A DNA stretch of 64,000 nt from the NCBI GenBank assembly GCA_035474955.1, contig DATIMV010000030.1, positions 4,207 to 68,206 of the forward strand. The letters run 5' to 3'. The position numbers and the translations under genes are program-made. Under the pieces are notes generated by a model that saw only the letters and a program-made list of their open reading frames with translations, was not told the DNA's origin and made no database searches. The stretch comes from Solirubrobacterales bacterium. GTDB taxonomy: Bacteria; Actinomycetota; Thermoleophilia; Solirubrobacterales; 70-9. This document shows, piece after piece, positions 1,138-57,648 of this stretch (within the stretch, counting starts at the first letter, position 1; each line of letters begins with the position of its first letter).

Positions 1138-1815
1138 ATGGCTGCGCCCGAGATCAAGGCCGTGCTCTGGGACATCGACGGCACCCTGTTGAAAACCGGC
1201 GGAGCGGGGGCGGTGGCCTGGCAGCGCGCCTTCCGCGAGCTCTGGGAAGTCGACGCCAACATCACCGAACACACCCGGGAAGGGATGACCGACCCCGAAA
1301 TCGCCGAGATCGTCTTCCGTGAGGTGATCGGCCGCGACGGCTCCGACGAGGAGCGGGCGGCGGCGATCGCCGGCTACCTCAGCCACCTGCAGGAGGCGGT
1401 CGACGAGTCAGAGGGCTACGAACTGATGCCGGGAATCGAGGAGATCCTGCCCCGCCTCGCCGAGGCCGGCGTCCTGCTCGGCATCGTCACCGGCAACATC
1501 GAGGCCGCCGCCCACATCAAGCTCGGCCGCGGCGATCTCAACCGCTTCTTCGCCTTCGGCGGTTACGGCTCCGACGCCCGCGACCGTACGGAGCTGACCA
1601 AGAAGGGAATCGAGCGCGGGGGAGAGGTGGCCGGTCACCCCCTCGACCCCGAAGCCACGATCGGCGTCGGCGACACCCCCCGCGACGTCGTCGCCTGCCA
1701 TGGCGCCGGCATCCGCGTGGCCGGAGTCGCCACCGGCAAGTACTCGATCGCGCAGCTGGAGGAGGCGGGCGCCGACTGGGCTCTGTCCGACGTTTGCGAG
1801 GGCTTCCCGATCTGA
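1138..1815 (+). CDS. HAD-superfamily hydrolase (phosphoglycolate phosphatase-like)
   Basis: DxDxT motif (LWDIDGTLL) near the N-terminus. C-terminal GVGDTPRDV motif is typical of HAD subfamily IA. Confidence 0.8.
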   Translation: MAAPEIKAVLWDIDGTLLKTGGAGAVAWQRAFRELWEVDANITEHTREGMTDPEIAEIVFREVIGRDGSDEERAAAIAGYLSHLQEAVDESEGYELMPGIEEILPRLAEAGVLLGIVTGNIEAAAHIKLGRGDLNRFFAFGGYGSDARDRTELTKKGIERGGEVAGHPLDPEATIGVGDTPRDVVACHGAGIRVAGVATGKYSIAQLEEAGADWALSDVCEGFPI

Positions 1816-10713: not shown

Positions 10714-10803
10714 GGAGAGGTGTCCGAGCGGCTTAAGGAGCGCGATTGGAAATCGCGTGGGCGGGGTTAACCCGCCTCGTGGGTTCGAATCCCACCCTCT
10801 CCG
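10714..10803 (+). tRNA. tRNA-Ser (anticodon GGA)
   Basis: Cloverleaf folded by hand: acceptor GGAGAGG/CCTCTCC, anticodon stem CGCGA/TCGCG with loop TTGGAAA, long variable arm and T-arm GTGGG-TTCGAAT-CCCAC. CCA is not encoded. Confidence 0.9.
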
Positions 10804-10997: not shown

Positions 10998-11086
10998 CGG
11001 AGGGGGTGGGATTCGAACCCACGAGCCCCCTTACGAAGGCCAACGGTTTTCGAGACCGCCCCGTTCAACCACTCCGGCACCCCTCC
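10998..11086 (-). tRNA. tRNA-Ser (anticodon CGA)
   Basis: The reverse complement reads GGAGGGGTGCCGGAGTGG...CTCGAAA...GTGGGTTCGAATCCCACCCCCTCCG. It has a long variable arm and anticodon loop CTCGAAA. Convergent with tRNA-Ser(GGA). Confidence 0.9.
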
Positions 11087-24458: not shown

Positions 24459-24848
24459 TCACTTCGCTAGCTGGGCTTCTGCCCATTCGCCGACTTCATT
24501 GAACAGCGCGACCGTCGCCTCACGGTCCAGCGGCTCGGCATCTAGGAGATCCGCATAGCGCAGCGGGACCGCATAGATCGACAGGTCATCGAGCTGGTCA
24601 GCGCCCGGGGGTGGATCGATCCCGGCGCTGTCGAGAATTTCAAGCAGCCGTCCAAGGTCGTGAATACGAGCCTCTTCCAGGCCGTGGAACGCCATCACCG
24701 CCTTGAGCCACTTCTCGACCGCCTGTTGGGCGTGGAAGCCGATGGCCTCGTCATCGATCTCGGGGTCGGGCGCCAACTTGCGCGCAACCCTGGCATCGCC
24801 CGTTGCCTTGCGTGCAAGAACCTTCGCGAGGTCCCCAGCATCAGGCAT
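24459..24848 (-). CDS. HEPN-domain protein (toxin-type partner of the MNT nucleotidyltransferase)
   Basis: FHAQQAVEKWLKAVMAFHGLEEARIHDLGRLLEIL is typical of MNT-associated HEPN. ATG 24848 overlaps the MNT stop by 8 nt (ATGCCTGA). Confidence 0.8.
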   Translation of the reverse strand: MPDAGDLAKVLARKATGDARVARKLAPDPEIDDEAIGFHAQQAVEKWLKAVMAFHGLEEARIHDLGRLLEILDSAGIDPPPGADQLDDLSIYAVPLRYADLLDAEPLDREATVALFNEVGEWAEAQLAK

Positions 24849-25158
24849 CGACAAGAACCCGGCCCTCACTCAGCGCCTCGTTGAGCATCGTGCCGTCGAA
24901 GTGACCCCATTCTTCGACGTCTTTAGCGCTCACGACGATTACATCAAGGGCCACTTCCAGCCCTCGCAACTCTCGCCTCAGGCGTGCCGTCTCGGCTCGA
25001 CGCTTTGACACGTCATCCGGCTCGATTACCAGGAGATCAAGATCGGAATCTGGGCGGGCCTCTCCACGGGCGCGAGAACCAAAGAGAATCACTTTGGCTC
25101 CGGGCGCGGCGCTGGCGAGTCGCCGGCCAGCCTCTGCGATTAGAGCCTCGTCGGTCAT
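24841..25158 (-). CDS. minimal nucleotidyltransferase (MNT) domain protein
   Basis: GSRARGEARPDSDLDLLV motif (GSxxxG...DxD). ATG 25158 preferred, with GTG 25179 as an alternative. Confidence 0.8.
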   Translation of the reverse strand: MTDEALIAEAGRRLASAAPGAKVILFGSRARGEARPDSDLDLLVIEPDDVSKRRAETARLRRELRGLEVALDVIVVSAKDVEEWGHFDGTMLNEALSEGRVLVDA

Positions 25159-25249
25159 GCGCCATAGGGTAGCCGTCACTTTTGACAGCCACGGAAACCG
25201 AGCCCGAATCCTTTAGAGGTTGACCGGTTGACCCAGTTTGGGCCGCATG

Positions 25250-25263
25250 CGAACATATGTTCG
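25250..25263. promoter_or_regulatory. LexA-type SOS box (CGAAC-N4-GTTCG)
   Basis: The perfect 14-bp palindrome CGAACATATGTTCG overlaps the start region of the radical-SAM gene. It matches the Gram-positive/mycobacterial SOS-box core GAAC-N4-GTTC. Confidence 0.6.
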
Positions 25264-25264
25264 T

Positions 25265-26317
25265 ATGAGGTGGGATGAGCAACGAGTCGAGAACGACCTG
25301 CGACTGCCGGGGGTGGGGGACGGCACCGTCGTCCGCACCTTCGACGCCCCGGAGGCGATGGGGATCAACTTCCACGAGGTCCGCGCCCGCTCGGCGCTGA
25401 ACCACGTTCCCGGCAGCCGCTACGGCTTCAGCTGGACGATCAACCCCTTCAGAGGATGCACCCATGCCTGTAAATACTGTTTTGCTCGAAGAACTCATAA
25501 CTATTTAGATTTTGGTCCTGGTAAAGACTTCGAGCGGGAAATCGTCGTCAAGGTCAACGTGCCGGAGCTGCTGCGGGCGGAGCTGCGGCGGCCGAGCTGG
25601 AAGCGGGAGCTGGTGGCGCTGGGGACGAACACCGACCCCTATCAGTGGGTCGAGAGCCGCTACCGGATGATGCCCGAGATCCTCGCGGCGCTGGAGGCGG
25701 CGGAGACGCCGGTCTCGGTGCTGACCAAGTCGCCCCTGGTGCTGCGCGACGTCGAGATCTACGAGCGGATGGCGAAGGTGCTGCCGATCTCGGTCAACCT
25801 CTCGATTCCGACCCTGGACGAGGAGGCCTGGCGGGCGACCGAGCCGCACACCCCAAGCCCAGCCGCCCGCCTCGAAGCCGTCGCCGAGCTCCGCTCCCGC
25901 GGCATCGACTCCGGAGTCCTGATCGCGCCGCTGATGCCGGGGATCAACGACGACCCCGACCAGGTCCGCCCGCTCGTAGAACAAGCCAAAGCCGCCGGCG
26001 CCACCTTCCTGGGCAGCGTCGCCCTCCACCTCCGCGGCGAGGTAAAGGACGTCTTCTTCGCCTGGCTAGAGGCCAAACGCCCCGACCTCCTCCCCCGCTA
26101 CGAAGCTCTCTACCGCGACCGCGCCTACATGCGGCCTGAGCAGCGCCGTCACGCAACGAGAGCTGTCAAAGGCTGGGGCAGAGGAAGAGCGTCAAGACAA
26201 AGGGATTCACGGGCGGGTGGCGACGATCGGGAGGACTCTCCCGATAGGGAGAGCCCCCGATCGGAGACAGGACCCGCCCGCCAGAGCTCCCCCGTCCACC
26301 AGGGTTCCCTCTTCTAG
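25265..26317 (+). CDS. Rv2578c-family radical SAM protein (SplB/DNA-photolyase-like, COG1533 type)
   Basis: FSWTINPFRGCTHACKYCFARRTHNYLDF carries the CxxxCxxC motif. Start ambiguous (TTG 25238, ATG 25247 or ATG 25265). The C-terminal 35 aa are encoded by a repeat element and low-complexity sequence. Confidence 0.85.
   Translation: MRWDEQRVENDLRLPGVGDGTVVRTFDAPEAMGINFHEVRARSALNHVPGSRYGFSWTINPFRGCTHACKYCFARRTHNYLDFGPGKDFEREIVVKVNVPELLRAELRRPSWKRELVALGTNTDPYQWVESRYRMMPEILAALEAAETPVSVLTKSPLVLRDVEIYERMAKVLPISVNLSIPTLDEEAWRATEPHTPSPAARLEAVAELRSRGIDSGVLIAPLMPGINDDPDQVRPLVEQAKAAGATFLGSVALHLRGEVKDVFFAWLEAKRPDLLPRYEALYRDRAYMRPEQRRHATRAVKGWGRGRASRQRDSRAGGDDREDSPDRESPRSETGPARQSSPVHQGSLF
26212..26287. 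repeat. 76-nt palindromic repeat element, copy 1 (in-frame in the radical-SAM gene tail)
   Basis: 74/76 nt identical to 54481-54556. Has an internal hairpin CTCTCCC-GATA-GGGAGAG flanked by GATCGGG...CCCGATC. Confidence 0.85.
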
Positions 26318-27267
26318 CCCGCCCCTTCATCAAGCTGATCGAACTTGCACTCTTTCGGCGCTTTGTCGTCCCTGAACCGATGAAACCGAGCCCCATGCCG
26401 AATCCGCCCCGAAGCCGCATGGTCATACCCAACCTCGATCACCAGCTCCGGCCGCAACTCAACCCACTCGAGGTCGCGGCCCCCGGTCCAGCGACTGGGC
26501 TCCGCGGTGCCGGCCTTGCCGGTCTCCAGCGGCGCCAGCATCGAGCGCATGCTCTGTTTCGCCGCTTTCGAGAACCCTGAGATGTGGCCGACCGTGCAGA
26601 GCTCGCCGTCTTTGTAGAGGCCGAGGATCAGCGAGCCGACGGTGCCCTCTTCTTTGCCCGGGCGCCAGCCCATCACCACGCAATCGATCGTCCGCTCGCG
26701 CTTGACCTTCGCCATCCCCTTCCGCTTGCCGGGAACGTAGGGCGCGGAGAGGTTCTTGGCCATCACCCCCTCGATGCTGTTCAGCCACCGCTCCGCCTGC
26801 TCGGCGTCGGCGCTCAGCGTCGTCAGCTCGAGGCCCGCCGTCTCGGCGATCGCCTCCAGCCGTTCGCGGCGCTCGCGCAGCGGCTTCTCGCACAGCACCT
26901 CGTCTCCTTCCGCCAGCAGGTCGAAGACGACGTAGCTGGCCGGGATCTCCTTCGAGAGCAGCTCGATCCGCGACTGCGCCGGGTGGATCCGTTCCTGCAG
27001 GGAGTCGAATTCGAGGTTGCCGTCGGCGTCGCGGATCACCAGCTCGCCGTCGAGCACCCAGCGGCCGGGGGCGAACTCGAGCTCGGGGAAGTAGCGGTTG
27101 AAGGGTTTGCCGCCGCGCGACTGCACGTAGAAGTCCTCGCCGTCGACGAAGACGATCGCGCGGAAGCCGTCGAGCTTCGGCTCGTACGCCCAGTCCTCGC
27201 CCTCCGGCAGCGCTTTGCGGGTAAGCGCAAGTTGCGGCTTGATCGGAGGGGAGAGGGGTAGCGCCAC
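26314..27267 (-). CDS. ATP-dependent DNA ligase (LigC/LigD ligase-domain type)
   Basis: Adenylation motif I EPKLDGFRAIVF. About 317 aa, consistent with a stand-alone ligase. GTG start lies immediately after the oppF stop (TAG-GTG). Confidence 0.85.
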   Translation of the reverse strand: MALPLSPPIKPQLALTRKALPEGEDWAYEPKLDGFRAIVFVDGEDFYVQSRGGKPFNRYFPELEFAPGRWVLDGELVIRDADGNLEFDSLQERIHPAQSRIELLSKEIPASYVVFDLLAEGDEVLCEKPLRERRERLEAIAETAGLELTTLSADAEQAERWLNSIEGVMAKNLSAPYVPGKRKGMAKVKRERTIDCVVMGWRPGKEEGTVGSLILGLYKDGELCTVGHISGFSKAAKQSMRSMLAPLETGKAGTAEPSRWTGGRDLEWVELRPELVIEVGYDHAASGRIRHGARFHRFRDDKAPKECKFDQLDEGAG

Positions 27268-41996: not shown

Positions 41997-43226
41997 ATAC
42001 TGCGCGGGGTGCCTGCGCTACGCCGCTTCGCCGGCCGCCGACGAAGTCGCGCCGACAGCCCCCGGCTCTCCCTGTGCGCGATGACCGCTGCCGGGCCGGC
42101 GCAAGCGCGGGCCTTCCTCGAACAGTGGCGCCCCGTGGTCGACGAGATCGTCGTCGCCGTGGACGAGCGCGCCCATCCGGCCACGACGAACGAGTGCGCG
42201 CGCCTCGCCGATCAGGTCTACGTCGTGCCGGCGGCGATGTCGAACATCGAACCCTACGTCGGATGGCTGCACAGTCACTGCTCCGGCGAGTGGATCCTGC
42301 GGGTCGACGACGACGAGCTGCCGAGCAAGGAGCTGAGGCAGGCGCTGCCGTCCCTTCTCGACGAGCGCGAACCCACGCATTACTTCCTGCCGCGCCGGTG
42401 GATGTACCCCACGCCGAAGACGTACATAACCGAGGGGATCTGGCTGCGGGACGTGCAGCTGCGCCTGGTGCGCAACCTTCCCGGTCTCTGGCGCTTCTCC
42501 GGCCGCTTGCATCTGAACATCGAAGTGGAAGGCGCCGGCCGCATCGTCGACGCGCCGCTGCTGCACCTCTCGCTTCTCGTGGCCGATCTGGAGAAGCGGC
42601 GGGCCAAGGTGGAGGCCTACGAGCGGATCAGACCCGGGCTCCGCACCGGGTCGGGCGTGCCCCTCAACAGCGTCTTCCTCCCCGAGGACATGGAAGTGAC
42701 CTCCCTGAACCGGTCGGGGAGGTCCGACGCCTCGGCTGCCGACCGCTTCCTGCAGGCGGTTCACGGTCCCGAGACGGAGCCGGCGCCACCGGCTGGCGGG
42801 GTGCCGAGCGTCCCCCTGGGGGAGATCCTGCGCTGGAGCGGAGACCGGCCGGTCTCCGCCGGTGCCTACCGGGCGCGCGTCACGCTCCCGAACGGAGTCG
42901 CGCCGATGCCGGCCGAGGCCATCCAGCACGTGCAGGTCGAGGTCAGCAACCTGGGGGACGAATGGTTCCCCAGAGGACCGCATCCGCAGCCGCCGATCCA
43001 GATCGGCTACCGCTGGCAACGGGAGGACGGCACGGAGATCGAGCTACCGACGCTGCGCACGCCCTTCACGGAGGCCGTCGCACCCGGCGCGACGACGCGG
43101 TTGGCGATGGCGATCCAGGCCCCGCCGGACCACGGGCGCTTGCAGCTCCGCGTCGATCTGGTCCACGAGAACGTGCGCTGGTTCGAGTGCGAGGCGCGCC
43201 TCGAGGTCGACATCTCCCCTCCGTAG
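41997..43226. repeat. 1.23-kb direct repeat, copy A (paralogous duplication, period exactly 1801 bp)
   Basis: Colinear with 43798-45027 without indels. Both ORF starts (42009/43810) and the TAG/TAT position (43224/45025) are offset by exactly 1801. About 85-90% nt identity by eye. Confidence 0.85.
42009..43226 (+). CDS. putative GT2-like glycosyltransferase with C-terminal beta-rich domain (paralog A)
   Basis: LSLCAMT...VDEIVVAVDERA...WILRVDDDELP resembles the GT2 subgroup with a D(A/D)DE motif. The start is uncertain (GTG 42009 or ATG 42081). Confidence 0.6.
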   Translation: MPALRRFAGRRRSRADSPRLSLCAMTAAGPAQARAFLEQWRPVVDEIVVAVDERAHPATTNECARLADQVYVVPAAMSNIEPYVGWLHSHCSGEWILRVDDDELPSKELRQALPSLLDEREPTHYFLPRRWMYPTPKTYITEGIWLRDVQLRLVRNLPGLWRFSGRLHLNIEVEGAGRIVDAPLLHLSLLVADLEKRRAKVEAYERIRPGLRTGSGVPLNSVFLPEDMEVTSLNRSGRSDASAADRFLQAVHGPETEPAPPAGGVPSVPLGEILRWSGDRPVSAGAYRARVTLPNGVAPMPAEAIQHVQVEVSNLGDEWFPRGPHPQPPIQIGYRWQREDGTEIELPTLRTPFTEAVAPGATTRLAMAIQAPPDHGRLQLRVDLVHENVRWFECEARLEVDISPP

Positions 43227-43797: not shown

Positions 43798-45027
43798 ATA
43801 CTCCGCGGAGTGCCCGCGCTACGCCGCTTCGCCGGCCGCCGACGAAGTCGCGGCGACAGCCCACGGCTCTCCCTGTGCGCGATGACCGCAGCCGAGCCGT
43901 CGCAAGCGCGGGCCTTCCTCGAGCAGTGGCGCCCCCTGGCCGACGAGGTCGTCGTCGCCGTGGACGAGCGCGCTCATCCGGAGACGACGAACGAGTGCGC
44001 GCGCCTCGCCGACCGGGTCTACGTCGTGCCGGCGGCGATGGCCCACATGGAGCGCTATCTCGGGTGGCTGCACAGCCGCTGCTCCGGCGAGTGGATCCTG
44101 CGGGCCGACGACGACGAACTGCCGAGCGAGGCACTGAAGAAGGTGCTGCGGCCTCTGCTCGACGAGCGCGAGCCGACGCACTACTGGTTGCCGCGCAGCT
44201 GGATGTACCCGACGCCGGAGACGTACATAACCGAGGGGATCTGGCACCGGGACATCCAGCTGCGCCTGGTGCGCAACCTCCCCGGCCTCTGGCGCTTCTC
44301 CGGCCGTTTGCACTCGAACGTCGAGGTGGCGGGCGCCGGCCGCATCGTCGACGCGCCGCTCCTGCACCTCGCGCTTCTCGTCTCCGACCTGGAGAAGCGG
44401 CGGGCCAAGGTCGAGGCATACGAGCGTGTTGCGCCTGGACTTCGCGCGCCGTCGGGTGTGCCCCTCAACAGCGTCTTCGTCCCCGAGGAGATGGGAGTCA
44501 CCTCCCTGGACCGGTCGAGCAAGCGCGACGTCGCCGGCGCCGCCCGCTACCTGCAGGTGGCCCGCGAGCCCGGGGAGGAGCCGGCGCCAAAGGCCGGCGG
44601 TGTGCCGACCGTCGCGCTGGAGGAGATCGTGCGCTGGAACGGGGAGCGGCCGGTCTCCACCGACGCGTACCGGGTGCGGGTCACGCTCCCGCGGGGCATC
44701 AGGCCAATGCGAGCCGAGAGCGTCCAGCACGTGCAGGTCGAGGTCGCCAACCTGGGAGACGAATGGCTGCCGAGAGGACCGCGGCCGGAGCCGCCCATCC
44801 AGGTCGGCTACCGCTGGTGGCGGGAGGACGGCACGGAGATCGTGCAGCCCACGCTGCGCACCCCCTTCACGGAGACCGTCGCGCCCGGCGCGACGACGCG
44901 GTTGGCGATGGCGATCCAGGCCCCGCCGGACCACGGGCGCTTGCAGCTCCGCGTCGACGTCGTCCATGAGAACGTGCGCTGGTTCGAGTGCGAGGAGCGC
45001 CTCGAGGTCGACATCTCCCCTCCGTAT
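43798..45027. repeat. 1.23-kb direct repeat, copy B
   Basis: See copy A. Homology stops at the codon (TAT 45025-45027) that corresponds to the TAG stop in copy A. Confidence 0.85.
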
Positions 45028-48784: not shown

Positions 48785-49065
48785 CAGCGGTGGACCGTGC
48801 TAGGCGGGGAATTAGCGGTGCCCTGTAACCCGCAATCCGCTTTAGCGGGGCCGACTACCGTTCCGAGGGACTGGCCGTCGGGGTCAGTGCGTCGCGGCGG
48901 GCGTTGACGGCCGGGTCCTGCGCGACGTGGGCACGCGAATCAGGTCAGGTCCGGAAGGAAGCAGCCTTAAGCGGATGCCGCGGGTGCCGCAGGAGAGCCC
49001 GACCCGAGCCTCAAGCGACGGACACGCCCGGTGACCTCGTTTCAAAGAACGGGTGCACGGTCCAT
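48785..49065 (+). ncRNA. ffs: signal recognition particle RNA, long (Bacillus-type, Alu-domain-containing) form
   Basis: Domain IV core GTCAGGTCCGGAAGGAAGCAGCC. 5' Alu-domain motifs GTGCTAGGCGGGG and AGCGGTGCCCTGTAACCCGCAATCCGC. Terminal helix GGACCGTGC (48792-48800) pairs with GCACGGTCC (49055-49063). Ends are approximate to about 5 nt. Confidence 0.85.
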
Positions 49066-53095: not shown

Positions 53096-54937
53096 GTGAG
53101 CGAGTCGACTTCCCTCTACCGCCGCCATCGCCCGGGTTCCTTCGACGAGGTCGTGGGCCAGACCCACGTCGTCCGCACCCTGCGCAACGCGGTCGAGCAG
53201 GGCAAGGTCCACCACGCCTACCTCTTCGTCGGCTCCCGCGGCACCGGCAAGACCTCGATGGCGAAGATCCTCGCCCGCTCGCTGAACTGCGAGCGCGGTG
53301 GCCCGACCGTCACCCCCTGCGGCGAATGCGAGTCCTGCGTGACGATCGCCGCCGGCACCTCGGTCGACGTGATCGAGATGGACGCGGCCTCGAACCGCTC
53401 GGTCGACGACGTCCGCGACCTCCGAGAGCGGGTCGCCTACGCCCCCGCCGGCGGCCACTGGAAGGTCTACATCCTCGACGAGGCGCACATGCTGACCAAA
53501 GAGGCTTGGAACGCCTTCCTGAAGACGCTCGAGGAGCCGCCGCCGAACACCGTCTTCGTCCTCGCCACCACCGAGTCGCACAAGGTGATGGCGACGATCG
53601 CCGACCGCTGCCAGCGCTTCGACTTCCAGCGCCCCTCGCTGGAGCAGATCTCCGAGGTGCTGACCCGGGTCGCCGCCACCGAGCAAATTGAGGTCGACGA
53701 GGGGGCGGTGGCGATGATCGCCCGCTCGGCCTCGGGCAGCTTCCGCGATGCCCTTGGCACTCTCGACCAGCTGGTCGCCTTCGGCGGCAACCACGTCAAG
53801 CTCGAAGACGTGCTGGAGATGCTCGGCGCCGCTGACGCCGACCTCCTCTTCGAGGCGGTCGATGCGGTGGTCGCCGAGGACCCCAAGGGCGTCCTGCTCG
53901 GGGTCGAGAGGATGGCCCGCTCCGGTCGCGACCCCTCGCAGTTCGCCCGCGACCTCCTCGCCCACCTGCGCCATCTGCTGATCACCCAGACGACCGGCGA
54001 AGTCCCGACCGGCTTCGTGGTAACCGCCACCGACACCGCCCGCATGCAGGCCCAGGCCACTGCGATCCGCCCCGGCAACCTTGTCCGCACGATCGACGAG
54101 CTCGCGGATGCCCTCACCGCCGTCCGCGAGGGCGACGACGCCCGCCTGGCCGTCGAGATCGCGCTGCTCAAGGCTGCCCGTCCGGATCTCGACCCGGACA
54201 CCGCTGGGCTGCTGAGGAGGATCGAGCGACTGGAGCAGCAGGACGGAGGCGCCCGGCCCGCGGGCCCTGTCTCCGGTACGTCCCTCTCGCCTGCCGGCGA
54301 GAGTCCCGCACCGTCGCCACCCGGGGCAGATCCGCCCCCAGCAGACGACCCACCGATCGAACCTTCACCGAACGATCCCCCCGCTCCGGCCCCTCAGGAG
54401 GACCCCCCTCCCGCCGAAGAAGAAGAGGCTGAGGTTGCCCCGCCCCCCGAGTCTGAGCCGTCAGCGGAAGCCGCTCCTCCGGCGGGTGGCGACGATCGGG
54501 AGGACTCTCCCGGTAGGGAGAGCCCCCGATCGGAGACAGGACCCGCCGGCCAGAGCCCGCCCGCCCCCCCCGCGGAGCTGTCCCTCGACGAGATCCAGCG
54601 AGTCTGGCCCGCTGTCCTTCAGAAGCTGGAGGAGACCGCTCCGGCTCTCGCTGGTGCGCTCGAGGGCGCGCGGCCGGTCAGTTTCGGTGAGAGCGGACTC
54701 GAGGTGGGCTTCCCCCCCGACATGACCTTCCTGAAGAAAAACGCCGACAGCCCAGAGAAGCGAGACACGGTGGCCGCTGCCTTTGCTGCCGTGACCGGCA
54801 CGGGGTTGCGGCCCACTTATGTGGTGCTGGACGGAGAGGCGCCGCCGGATACGCCGGCGCCGGGTAGTGATCAGGTCAACGAGGAAGAGCTGCTGGAGCG
54901 GCTGAAGAGCGAGTTCGACGCGGAGGAGGTCGGTTAG
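53096..54937 (+). CDS. dnaX: DNA polymerase III subunit gamma/tau
   Basis: LYRRHRPGSFDEVVGQTHV, Walker A GSRGTGKTS, a zinc module CGECESC and an SRC-like region. Long Pro/Glu-rich linker containing repeat copy 2. Confidence 0.9.
   Translation: MSESTSLYRRHRPGSFDEVVGQTHVVRTLRNAVEQGKVHHAYLFVGSRGTGKTSMAKILARSLNCERGGPTVTPCGECESCVTIAAGTSVDVIEMDAASNRSVDDVRDLRERVAYAPAGGHWKVYILDEAHMLTKEAWNAFLKTLEEPPPNTVFVLATTESHKVMATIADRCQRFDFQRPSLEQISEVLTRVAATEQIEVDEGAVAMIARSASGSFRDALGTLDQLVAFGGNHVKLEDVLEMLGAADADLLFEAVDAVVAEDPKGVLLGVERMARSGRDPSQFARDLLAHLRHLLITQTTGEVPTGFVVTATDTARMQAQATAIRPGNLVRTIDELADALTAVREGDDARLAVEIALLKAARPDLDPDTAGLLRRIERLEQQDGGARPAGPVSGTSLSPAGESPAPSPPGADPPPADDPPIEPSPNDPPAPAPQEDPPPAEEEEAEVAPPPESEPSAEAAPPAGGDDREDSPGRESPRSETGPAGQSPPAPPAELSLDEIQRVWPAVLQKLEETAPALAGALEGARPVSFGESGLEVGFPPDMTFLKKNADSPEKRDTVAAAFAAVTGTGLRPTYVVLDGEAPPDTPAPGSDQVNEEELLERLKSEFDAEEVG
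54481..54556. repeat. 76-nt palindromic repeat element, copy 2 (in-frame in the DnaX linker)
   Basis: 74/76 nt identical to 26212-26287 and in the same codon phase. Encodes AGGDDREDSPGRESPRSETGPAGQS. Confidence 0.85.
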
Positions 54938-55285
54938 GTGGCACGAGGAGGCGGACCGGGAGGCTTTGACATCCAGGGTCTGATGAAACAGGCGCAGCAG
55001 ATGCAGGCCGAGATGCTGGAGGCGCAGGAGAAACTGAAAGACGAGGTCGTCGAGGCGAGCGCCGGTGGCGGCATGGTCAAAGTGAAGATGGGCGGCGACC
55101 TGACCCTGCGGGAGATCGTGATCGATCCCGAGGCGATCGACCCCGAGGAGGCGGAGCTGCTGCAGGAGATGGTCCAGGCGGCCGTCAACGAGGGTCTGCG
55201 CGCCGCACAGGAGCTGGCCAGCTCGAAAATGGGCGGGATCACCGGGGGCGGCGACCTCGGCGGCCTGGGGGGCATGCTCGGTTGA
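54938..55285 (+). CDS. ybaB: YbaB/EbfC-family nucleoid-associated protein
   Basis: MKQAQQMQAEMLEAQEKL...GGGMVKVKMGGDL pattern. GTG directly after the dnaX stop. Confidence 0.85.
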   Translation: MARGGGPGGFDIQGLMKQAQQMQAEMLEAQEKLKDEVVEASAGGGMVKVKMGGDLTLREIVIDPEAIDPEEAELLQEMVQAAVNEGLRAAQELASSKMGGITGGGDLGGLGGMLG

Positions 55286-55881
55286 GCGAAGGCCCGGCAC
55301 CGCTCGCGCGCCTGGTCGCTGAGCTATCGCGGTTGCCGGGCATCGGCCAGCGGACCGCGCAGCGGCTCGCTTTCCACCTCCTGCGCGCGCCCGACGAAGA
55401 GGCCTTCGCCCTCGGCGACGCGATCCGCGAAGTGAAGGAGAAGGTCGGCCTCTGCGAGGAATGCTTCAACCTCGCCGAGGGTCCGCTCTGCCGGATCTGC
55501 GCCGACCAGAACCGGGATCGGGCGACGATCTGCGTCGTCGAGGAGCCCGCCGACGTGATCCCGATCGAGCGCACCCACGAATACCGTGGGCTCTACCACG
55601 TGCTCGGCGGCGCGCTGTCGCCGATCGACGGAGTCGACGCCGAAGACCTGAAGATCGGTGAGCTGCGGCGACGGGTCGAGCGCGGCGGCATCGACGAGGT
55701 GGTGCTGGCGACCAACCCCACCACCACCGGTGAGGCGACCGCTCTCCACATCGCCGACATGCTGCGCGGGCAGGTGACGGTGACGCGGCTGGCCAGCGGC
55801 CTGCCGGTCGGCGCGGACCTCGAGCACGCCGACGAGGTGACCCTGGGCAAGGCCCTCGCGGGCCGAAGAAGCCTGGAATAA
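55282..55881 (+). CDS. recR: recombination protein RecR
   Basis: LPGIGQRTAQRLAFHLL HhH motif, Cys4 zinc finger (CEECFNL...CRIC) and a Toprim domain. TTG start overlaps the ybaB stop. Confidence 0.9.
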   Translation: MSEGPAPLARLVAELSRLPGIGQRTAQRLAFHLLRAPDEEAFALGDAIREVKEKVGLCEECFNLAEGPLCRICADQNRDRATICVVEEPADVIPIERTHEYRGLYHVLGGALSPIDGVDAEDLKIGELRRRVERGGIDEVVLATNPTTTGEATALHIADMLRGQVTVTRLASGLPVGADLEHADEVTLGKALAGRRSLE

Positions 55882-56808: not shown

Positions 56809-57648
56809 ATGCCAGGAATCCGCACCAACGCCGCCGCCGAAGTTCTGGGCGTAAGCCCCAACACCCTGCGTAGTTGGGAGCGTCGCTACGGCTACCCGAC
56901 GCCGAAGCGGACCGTCGGCAACCACCGCAACTACGAGCTGCTCGAGCTGCAGGCGTTGCGCGACGCCCTCGCCGAGACGGGCAACATCTCCTCGGCGATC
57001 GAGCTGGCGCGCCAGCGTCAGGCCGCGCCGGCCAGCGACGACAGCCTTCTCAGCGCCTTCGAGAGCTTCGACGAGCCCGCCGCCGACCGCGCGGTCGAGG
57101 AGAGCCTCGCCCTGCGCTCATTGGAGCGCACGGTGGAGGAGCTGCTGCTGCCGGCGATCGACAAGCTTGCCGCCGACCCCGAGCGCGAGGCAGAGCTCGA
57201 GTTCGCCTCCCGCTGGGCCACCGGCTGGCTCCACGGCGCCCGTCGCCTCGCCTCCACCGCGGCGCGACCGGCCGGGATCCTGCTGCTCGACTCCAGCCAC
57301 GGCCAGGGCGCCGAGGAGGTCTACACCCAAGCCCTCGACCTCGCCCTCCGCCGTGCCGGCTTCCGCGTCCTCGTCCTCTCCAACGAGCTCGGCGACGACC
57401 GCCTCGGCCGCGCCCTCGGTGCGCTCGACCCGACCGCGATCGTCCTCTGCGGCCCCGAGGCCGACACCCAGAGCGCCGTCAAGCTGGTCCGCAAGATCCG
57501 CGAGCTCGGCTTCGTCGCCCCGCTCTACGGCTTCCGCGCCGACGGCCTGATCGGCGCCGCCGTCCCCTCCGCGGGCAACCGCCCCAGCGAAGTCACCGGC
57601 ATGCTGAACGCTGATCTCCGCCGCCGGGCGTCCCAGGCTTTCGCCTAA
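56809..57648 (+). CDS. MerR-family regulator with a possible cobalamin-binding-like C-terminal domain
   Basis: N-terminal MerR HTH (AAEVLGVSPNTLRSWERRYGYP...HRNY). The C-terminal Rossmann-like part has LLDSSHGQGAEE (HxxG), reminiscent of LitR/CarH. Weak call. Confidence 0.7.
   Translation: MPGIRTNAAAEVLGVSPNTLRSWERRYGYPTPKRTVGNHRNYELLELQALRDALAETGNISSAIELARQRQAAPASDDSLLSAFESFDEPAADRAVEESLALRSLERTVEELLLPAIDKLAADPEREAELEFASRWATGWLHGARRLASTAARPAGILLLDSSHGQGAEEVYTQALDLALRRAGFRVLVLSNELGDDRLGRALGALDPTAIVLCGPEADTQSAVKLVRKIRELGFVAPLYGFRADGLIGAAVPSAGNRPSEVTGMLNADLRRRASQAFA

Follow-up and report, generated by a model that had tools for sequence, protein, structure and literature searches.

A multi-copy, strand-specific hairpin element within genes of Solirubrobacterales

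Soil Solirubrobacterales genomes carry a multi-copy, strand-specific hairpin element of 75 nt, often in frame within essential genes. Its copies come and go and replace one another at given sites, and they survive only where they do no harm. This high-GC element is a multi-copy family within a wider superfamily of REP/RPE-like palindromes, and it is probably an order-specific family whose copies moved as single-stranded DNA or were re-seeded by conversion, with selection filtering the insertions. What is new is the phylum, the intragenic scale, which includes ribosomal protein genes, the restriction to acidic frames, and the combination of a fixed outer stem with an exchangeable interior. A literature search found no paper on such repeats in Solirubrobacterales.

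The repeat in the window and its wider family

In the window, a 64,000-nt stretch of a Solirubrobacterales bacterium assembly, a 76-nt segment at 26212-26287 (+) recurs at 54481-54556 (+) with 2 mismatches, a second match for which 100 shuffles give an expectation of 0. Both 76-mers begin on the third base of a codon in the ORF that hosts them, so that the two proteins share the peptide GGDDREDSP(D/G)RESPRSETGPA(R/G)QS, and the segment is predicted to form a three-tier hairpin (-55.6 kcal/mol, z = -5.6). The recurrence, the equal codon phase and the capacity to fold had all been proposed in a first-pass annotation of the sequence and are borne out here. The same annotation described two copies, both of which are real, but it missed a third that is diverged, inverted and located inside dnaX (nhmmer with the family profile, E = 6.6e-13). 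This third copy has the same architecture as copies 1 and 2, with its inner and middle stems altered on both sides. The repeat at 26212-26287 likewise stands, but its limits shift: the family alignment places copy 1 at 26208-26282, and the extra 3' bases AGAGC, which are common to only a subset of copies, therefore fall outside the family-defined unit. Coordinates of the copies and their neighbouring genes are collected in Table 1.

Table 1. Copies of the hairpin element in the window, their host genes and the convergent ligase gene.
Feature	Coordinates	Strand	Description
Host gene 1, radical-SAM protein	25238..26317	+	359 aa; Pfam PF04055, Radical_SAM domain residues 68-239
Copy 1, type A	26208..26282	+	75-nt element: CT + hairpin 26210-26280 + CC; nhmmer E = 3e-18
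Copy 1, GTGG tag	26217-26220	+	
Copy 1, host position			frame +1, radical-SAM C-terminal tail, about codons 324-348 of 359
ATP-dependent DNA ligase gene, convergent	26314..27267	-	stop codon overlaps radical-SAM stop (CTAG)
Host gene 2, dnaX (clamp-loader gamma/tau)	53096..54937	+	613 aa; domain III residues 234-364; DnaX_C 493-572
Copy 3, type B	54255..54329	-	frame -0, read as AGPVSGTSLSPAGESPAPSPPGA, DnaX about residues 387-411
Copy 2, type A	54477..54551	+	75 nt; hairpin 54479-54549; nhmmer E = 5.4e-20
Copy 2, host position			frame +1, DnaX linker between domain III and DnaX_C, about residues 461-485

The DnaX linker between domain III and DnaX_C thus holds both copy 3 (-) and copy 2 (+), which form an inverted pair 147 nt apart. 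A further inverted pair is present at locus L032, where 1503-1559 (-) and 1616-1672 (+) lie 56 nt apart, and both arrangements are reminiscent of REPIN doublets. Relaxed scans of the window for more or sister copies recovered only the three known ones; an additional match at 57270-57333 scored at the level of shuffles and was dismissed.

Several other features of the window were recorded alongside the repeat. The conserved dnaX-ybaB-recR string (53096-55881) is preceded, at a distance of about 4 kb, by a bacterial large SRP RNA (48795-49060, +, 172 bits). Immediately 5' of the radical-SAM gene, two short ORFs that overlap each other (24459-24869 and 24841-25179, both -) look like a HEPN / nucleotidyltransferase (MNT) toxin-antitoxin pair, judged from their sequences. 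A 300-nt direct repeat at 41997-42296 and 43798-44097 (91% identity, 1.8 kb apart) probably consists of paralogous gene segments. Two long-arm tRNA genes, at 10714-10803 (+) and 10998-11086 (-), have 3' parts that form a 32-nt inverted repeat with 97% complementarity.

Beyond the window, one genome per species was scanned with the pattern GGGTGGCGACG, a spacer of 32-40 nt and CGGAGACAGG, the blocks common to the three window copies. The scan returned at least 113 loci in at least 44 species-level genomes, so the repeat has many copies elsewhere, with at least 6-8 per genome. Among the matches listed, 124 are true copies after three chance matches are dropped, and 117 of these 124 have an inter-block spacing of exactly 36 nt. 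All listed carrier genomes that bear an order-level name are Solirubrobacterales, and the remainder are soil Actinomycetota MAGs; a match on a viral contig was discarded as a single chance match without a hairpin. An assembly artefact, which had been raised as an explanation of the similarity, is excluded by the presence of the element in MAGs that stem from many projects. Within what we call family 1, GGGTGG and CGGAGACAGG are invariant by construction, since GGGTGG is part of the search pattern. Conservation of GGGTGG rests instead on sister-family copies that were found independently of the pattern (at L114, L116, L117, L118, L060 and L022) and that share GGGTGG...AC(A/G)GGACCC.

Searches of other kinds returned little. 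At the Rfam gathering thresholds nothing was found at the element, and an E-value scan gave only miRNA-like hairpin noise of at most 20 bits against thresholds of 45-184. A word-index search with the doubled frame -0 peptide gave 3 matches and an exhaustive phmmer search with the 30-aa frame +1 peptide gave 4, both searches being underpowered owing to short, low-complexity queries.

Anatomy and strand specificity of the hairpin

An ungapped alignment of 116 distinct copies defines a unit of 75 nt, a multiple of three, that consists of 5'-CT, a 71-nt hairpin and CC-3'. The terminal CT and CC are kept just as well in copies that lie between genes and therefore belong to the element. The outer stem is locus-specific and pairs sCsGC-GGGT with ACCC-GCsGs; it is followed by a small asymmetric loop, with GG opposite ACAGG, and then by a long, near-continuous helix that begins with C-G, tandem G.A/A.G and C-G pairs and whose stems vary with compensatory changes. 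As CGAC opposite GGAG is accounted for by these pairs, the only real internal loop is GG/ACAGG. A K-turn reading of the tandem G.A block was rejected: a C-G pair intervenes between the loop and the G.A pairs, and there are too many nucleotides on the opposite strand. An invariant GTGG lies directly 5' of the continuous helix (C37-G82) in all copies, GGGTGG having been part of the search pattern, and the GT of this tag is also paired within the outer stem. The tagged helix measures 46 nt and the whole hairpin 71 nt.

Covariation in the stems is strong. In the outer and middle stems 97.2% of alignment cells pair, versus 81.2% in shuffles, and double-sided stem changes number 258 versus about 86, a level that 0 of 500 shuffles reach. 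When the stem registers are slid, pairing falls to only 30-46%, and RNAalifold independently recovers the same stems. The register of the inner stem splits the copies into subtypes A (70 copies) and B (44), in both of which more than 98% of cells pair. The fold is also strand-specific, with 82 G.T versus 5 A.C cells, and the element-sense strand is the more stable in 112 of the 116 copies (-51.3 versus -45.5 kcal/mol), whatever the orientation of the host.

A MITE of the classical kind, which a DDE transposase mobilises at its terminal inverted repeats, would likewise be small, non-coding in itself, multi-copy and bounded by inverted termini. Such an origin is very improbable, as a strand-specific fold is not expected of an element that moves as double-stranded DNA and as no target-site duplication is found at any boundary for k = 2-6. 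The sole duplication signal proved to be an artefact of self-complementary CCGG/CGCG within the stem.

Host genes, reading frames and the histories of single sites

With gene models taken from a codon-usage heuristic and phased coding signal read from the flanks, 89 of the 124 listed copies (about 70%) lie in ORFs with coding signal, which make up 33 clusters of host genes. By Pfam and by inspection, the hosts among the listed copies include OdhA, DnaX (at two sites), ParA, FtsZ, GrpE, NusA, RecQ, Lhr, RibD, NuoE, glycosyltransferases, membrane proteins and the ribosomal proteins S1, S2, S5, S9, S17 and L10. In these listed hosts the element is always outside Pfam domains, in a linker, a loop or a terminal extension, and domains downstream of it (DnaX_C, the Lhr helicase, OdhA) remain in frame. 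The ribosomal proteins S9, S17, S2 and L10 (L011, L087, L066 and L084; clusters C6, C9, C10 and C19) carry element-containing acidic extensions of 100-180 residues, and S2 (L066) and NusA (L005) contain an extra half-element that appears as a second AGPVSD; elements may seed the growth of disordered tails.

Frame use is narrow. Across the 33 listed host clusters, 19 read the element in frame -0 (peptide AGPVSD-x11-SSPPA), 8 in frame +1 (GGDD...SETGPA) and 6 in other frames, most of these last being questionable cases at 5' ends. Of the 116 copies, 105 have frame +2 open and 110 have frame -2 open, yet neither frame is used, so the preference cannot be put down to stop codons. Only frames -0 and +1 encode acidic peptides, with net charges of -1.6 and -3.7 versus +4.7 to +5.4 elsewhere. 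Several N-terminal copies could lie in 5' UTRs; their translation is supported by the fact that frame -0 is used throughout. Selection would appear to purge insertions unless they leave the frame intact and the acidic, disordered peptide that they contribute does no harm, and the survival of only two acidic frames offers a clean case of insertions filtered by peptide chemistry.

The presence of the same peptide in many proteins might suggest a motif selected at the protein level, with the DNA palindrome incidental to it. We consider this scarcely credible: the same DNA is read in two frames and on two strands and also occurs between genes, third codon positions are invariant, including those of the rare codon CCA, and the nucleotide covariation of the stems goes along with changes in the peptide.

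The remaining 35 of the 124 listed copies are intergenic or unclear and mostly abut stop codons. Several of the intergenic ones are squeezed between two convergent genes, with 6-20 nt to either side, a geometry shared by copy 1. The first-pass annotation had suggested that copy 1 began as an intergenic terminator-like element into which the radical-SAM ORF later read, and this suggestion does not hold. The window radical-SAM tail ends in a conserved ...SLF*, and this LF* end lies 3' of the element, which places the element inside a translated tail. A terminator and promoter scan at copy 1 found nothing, with 0 terminator-like sites in 26000-26500, and the flanks of the element lack a conserved T-run and a terminator T-tract.

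Orthologues of the radical-SAM gene, at which the synteny with the ligase gene is kept, record several states of this site. All 120 of 120 end in ...(Q)xxLF*, and in those that bear an element this end is downstream of it. The family-1 peptide is present in 18 of the 120 and, slightly mutated, in 2 more. Many orthologues have sister families with the same ends, such as AGGTVGGT...GGSPAVTGPARQ, some tails hold remnants (PRAGGTGPARQ, PRAGPARQ) and others are empty. The outer stem CGGGCGGGTGG...CAGGACCCGCCCG is common to the family-1 copy of the window, a sister-family copy (L116) and a minimal remnant (L114), while at L117 the ORF stops before a hairpin of a different family, which sits in the spacer. 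Locus L061 was rejected as an orthologue of the copy 1 locus, as its upstream gene is different and only the ligase-side flank is similar. Sister hairpins with the same GGGTGG...GGACCC termini and different, longer interiors were noted at L117 (about 1635-1708), L118 (about 1110-1208), L060, L022 and L050; one of them is intergenic beside the ligase stop codon and one occupies a second Lhr site.

An internal loop of Lhr gives a parallel series. The loop comprises 22-30 residues in distant orthologues and in some close ones (P0121, 92% identical), while other orthologues contain family 1 in frame -0 or sister families. The filled locus (L021) exceeds the empty one (L118) by exactly 75 nt, a difference of size only, since the loop is too diverged between the two to align and give a base-exact empty site. 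Both a tail site and an internal loop site therefore exist with and without the element, and the empty radical-SAM and Lhr sites show that the segment is not a feature shared by all orthologues. Among the Lhr homologues (P0121-P0240) many are annotated as partial, at 300-540 aa, even on Mb-size contigs, and gene calls or assemblies may break near the hairpins. More generally, gene calling, MAG assembly and the alignment of phylogenetic markers such as ribosomal proteins, DnaX and FtsZ can go wrong because of such hairpins. The series of empty, filled, swapped and decayed sites makes movement of the element testable, as it does the question of how proteins tolerate or exploit inserted disordered segments.

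Among listed copies, outer-stem identity is 0.76 between orthologous copies versus 0.58 for the rest, and interior identity is 0.62 versus 0.60. Near-identical interiors make up 12.2% of comparisons between non-orthologous loci of one genome, versus 4.6-5.9% in the other classes (5.9% for orthologous copies in different genomes). Outer stems thus follow the locus and interiors follow the genome.

Origin of the copies and comparison with known systems

These patterns can be accommodated by ancient, non-transposing insertions whose similarity and interior swaps come solely from gene conversion through the conserved terminal blocks, a reading in keeping with an outer stem that is kept at its locus while the interior changes family, with the excess of near-identical copies within genomes, and with the lack of a transposase in the 0.9 Mb of loci scanned. 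We nevertheless regard it as unlikely, given that the conserved blocks, at just 13-18 nt, are short for homologous recombination and that both the empty sites in close relatives (P0121) and the intergenic copies in non-syntenic contexts (L061) suggest real gains.

A second alternative is that the hairpin is a host-beneficial cis-element under selection, acting either on DNA, for example as a cruciform or protein-binding site that punctuates replication or transcription, or on RNA, as a 3'-end stabiliser or a decay or pause signal. The strong stem covariation would fit such a role, as would the position of intergenic copies directly after stop codons, often between convergent genes, and the enrichment of hosts in highly expressed housekeeping genes. 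At orthologous sites the conserved blocks have, moreover, changed less than the linker around them: among dnaX orthologues the element is about 92% identical with its stem changes fully compensated, versus 77-80% for the linker, so that a host-level function could also be involved. In the majority class (frame -0), however, it is the strand complementary to the mRNA that folds well, which makes a function in mRNA unlikely. The lack of a T-tract, the decay of copies by internal deletion, their absence from close orthologues and the functionally unrelated hosts also weigh against this alternative, which we hold to be unlikely. Gene conversion between copies and a host function for the hairpin are both possible.

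In the reading that we favour, a selection-filtered family of REP/RPE-like palindromes, a strand-specific HUH-type (RAYT/IS200-like) enzyme would have dispersed the copies as hairpins of single-stranded DNA, or conversion between copies would have re-seeded them. The HUH-type route is inferred from published work on REPs, in which GT[AG]G tags, G.T pairs and one-strand cleavage at CT/CC have counterparts in the present element. A motif scan for HUH/RAYT proteins in six-frame ORFs of 0.9 Mb of loci, a weak test that covered about 2% of each genome, found none.

Two more ambitious possibilities can be entertained, although we place little weight on them: that the hairpins are substrates of an active single-stranded DNA cassette exchange that rewrites linkers of essential proteins, or that the GG/ACAGG loop with its tandem G.A pairs is the site of a host factor. 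In the former case the outer stem would be a fixed docking site with a swapped interior, the disordered linkers and tails of ribosomal proteins, FtsZ, DnaX and NusA would be continually rewritten, and the process would have driven the unusually long acidic extensions of Solirubrobacterales. In the latter, the factor would have a genome-wide role.

Among described systems, intrinsic terminators share the GC-rich hairpin and differ in having the T/U tract that is absent here. ERIC, Correia/NEMIS, QMITE1 and the Anabaena MITEs are small, non-autonomous repeats, and in-frame fusions can result from them (PMC10969869); the Solirubrobacterales element is likewise small and able to lie in frame. In contrast to it, those MITEs have terminal inverted repeats and target-site duplications, are usually AT-rich and are mostly intergenic.

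REPs are stem-loops that carry a GT[AG]G tag, with stem sequences that vary from family to family and frequent G.T pairs; some are found inside ORFs, especially those of replication and repair genes (PMC3733652). Their copies lie just after ORFs and between convergent genes, with no target-site duplication (PMC3733652, PMC8266576). TnpA_REP acts on one strand of single-stranded DNA and cleaves at CT, and a change of the tag from GTAG to GTGG shifts this cleavage to CC (PMC8266576). The Solirubrobacterales element has a GTGG 5' of its helix, CT on the 5' side and CC on the 3' side, and its G.T-biased strand asymmetry implies a single-stranded form. It differs from REPs in its longer hairpin (46-71 nt versus 20-40), in an extra outer stem that encloses the tag and, unlike in typical REPs, pairs its GT, and in the rarity of doublets. 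The motif scan of the 0.9 Mb of loci gave no RAYT gene. Furthermore, the 89 intragenic copies of the 124 listed contrast with the predominantly extragenic location of REPs downstream of ORFs. Its anatomy therefore best fits the tagged REPs, while its size and location depart from theirs.

RPEs are dispersed palindromic families, many of whose members are in frame in unrelated, often housekeeping, genes; they add peptides at positions compatible with the protein fold, and their mobilising mechanism is unknown (PMC10969869). The resemblance to RPEs that the first-pass annotation had seen is upheld in behaviour, as the present element is also a dispersed palindrome, with at least 113 loci, that lies in frame in unrelated genes without disrupting them. 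As a claim to the closest relative it needs qualification, since intragenic REPs (PMC3733652) are also among the closest described relatives. Unlike RPEs, which measure about 100-150 bp, the Solirubrobacterales element is 75 nt long, and it differs in phylum and in base composition (68% GC); it adds a GTGG tag, tandem G.A pairs and a strand-specific fold, uses only acidic frames and swaps interiors at fixed sites. Sequence homology is unlikely given the difference in phylum and GC content, and the element is better described as an analogue than as an RPE. In-frame selfish palindromes have so far been a Rickettsia curiosity accompanied by scattered intragenic REPs elsewhere; the Solirubrobacterales family extends this to soil Actinomycetota that are free-living and rich in GC, where it occurs on a large scale and in the most conserved genes of the cell.
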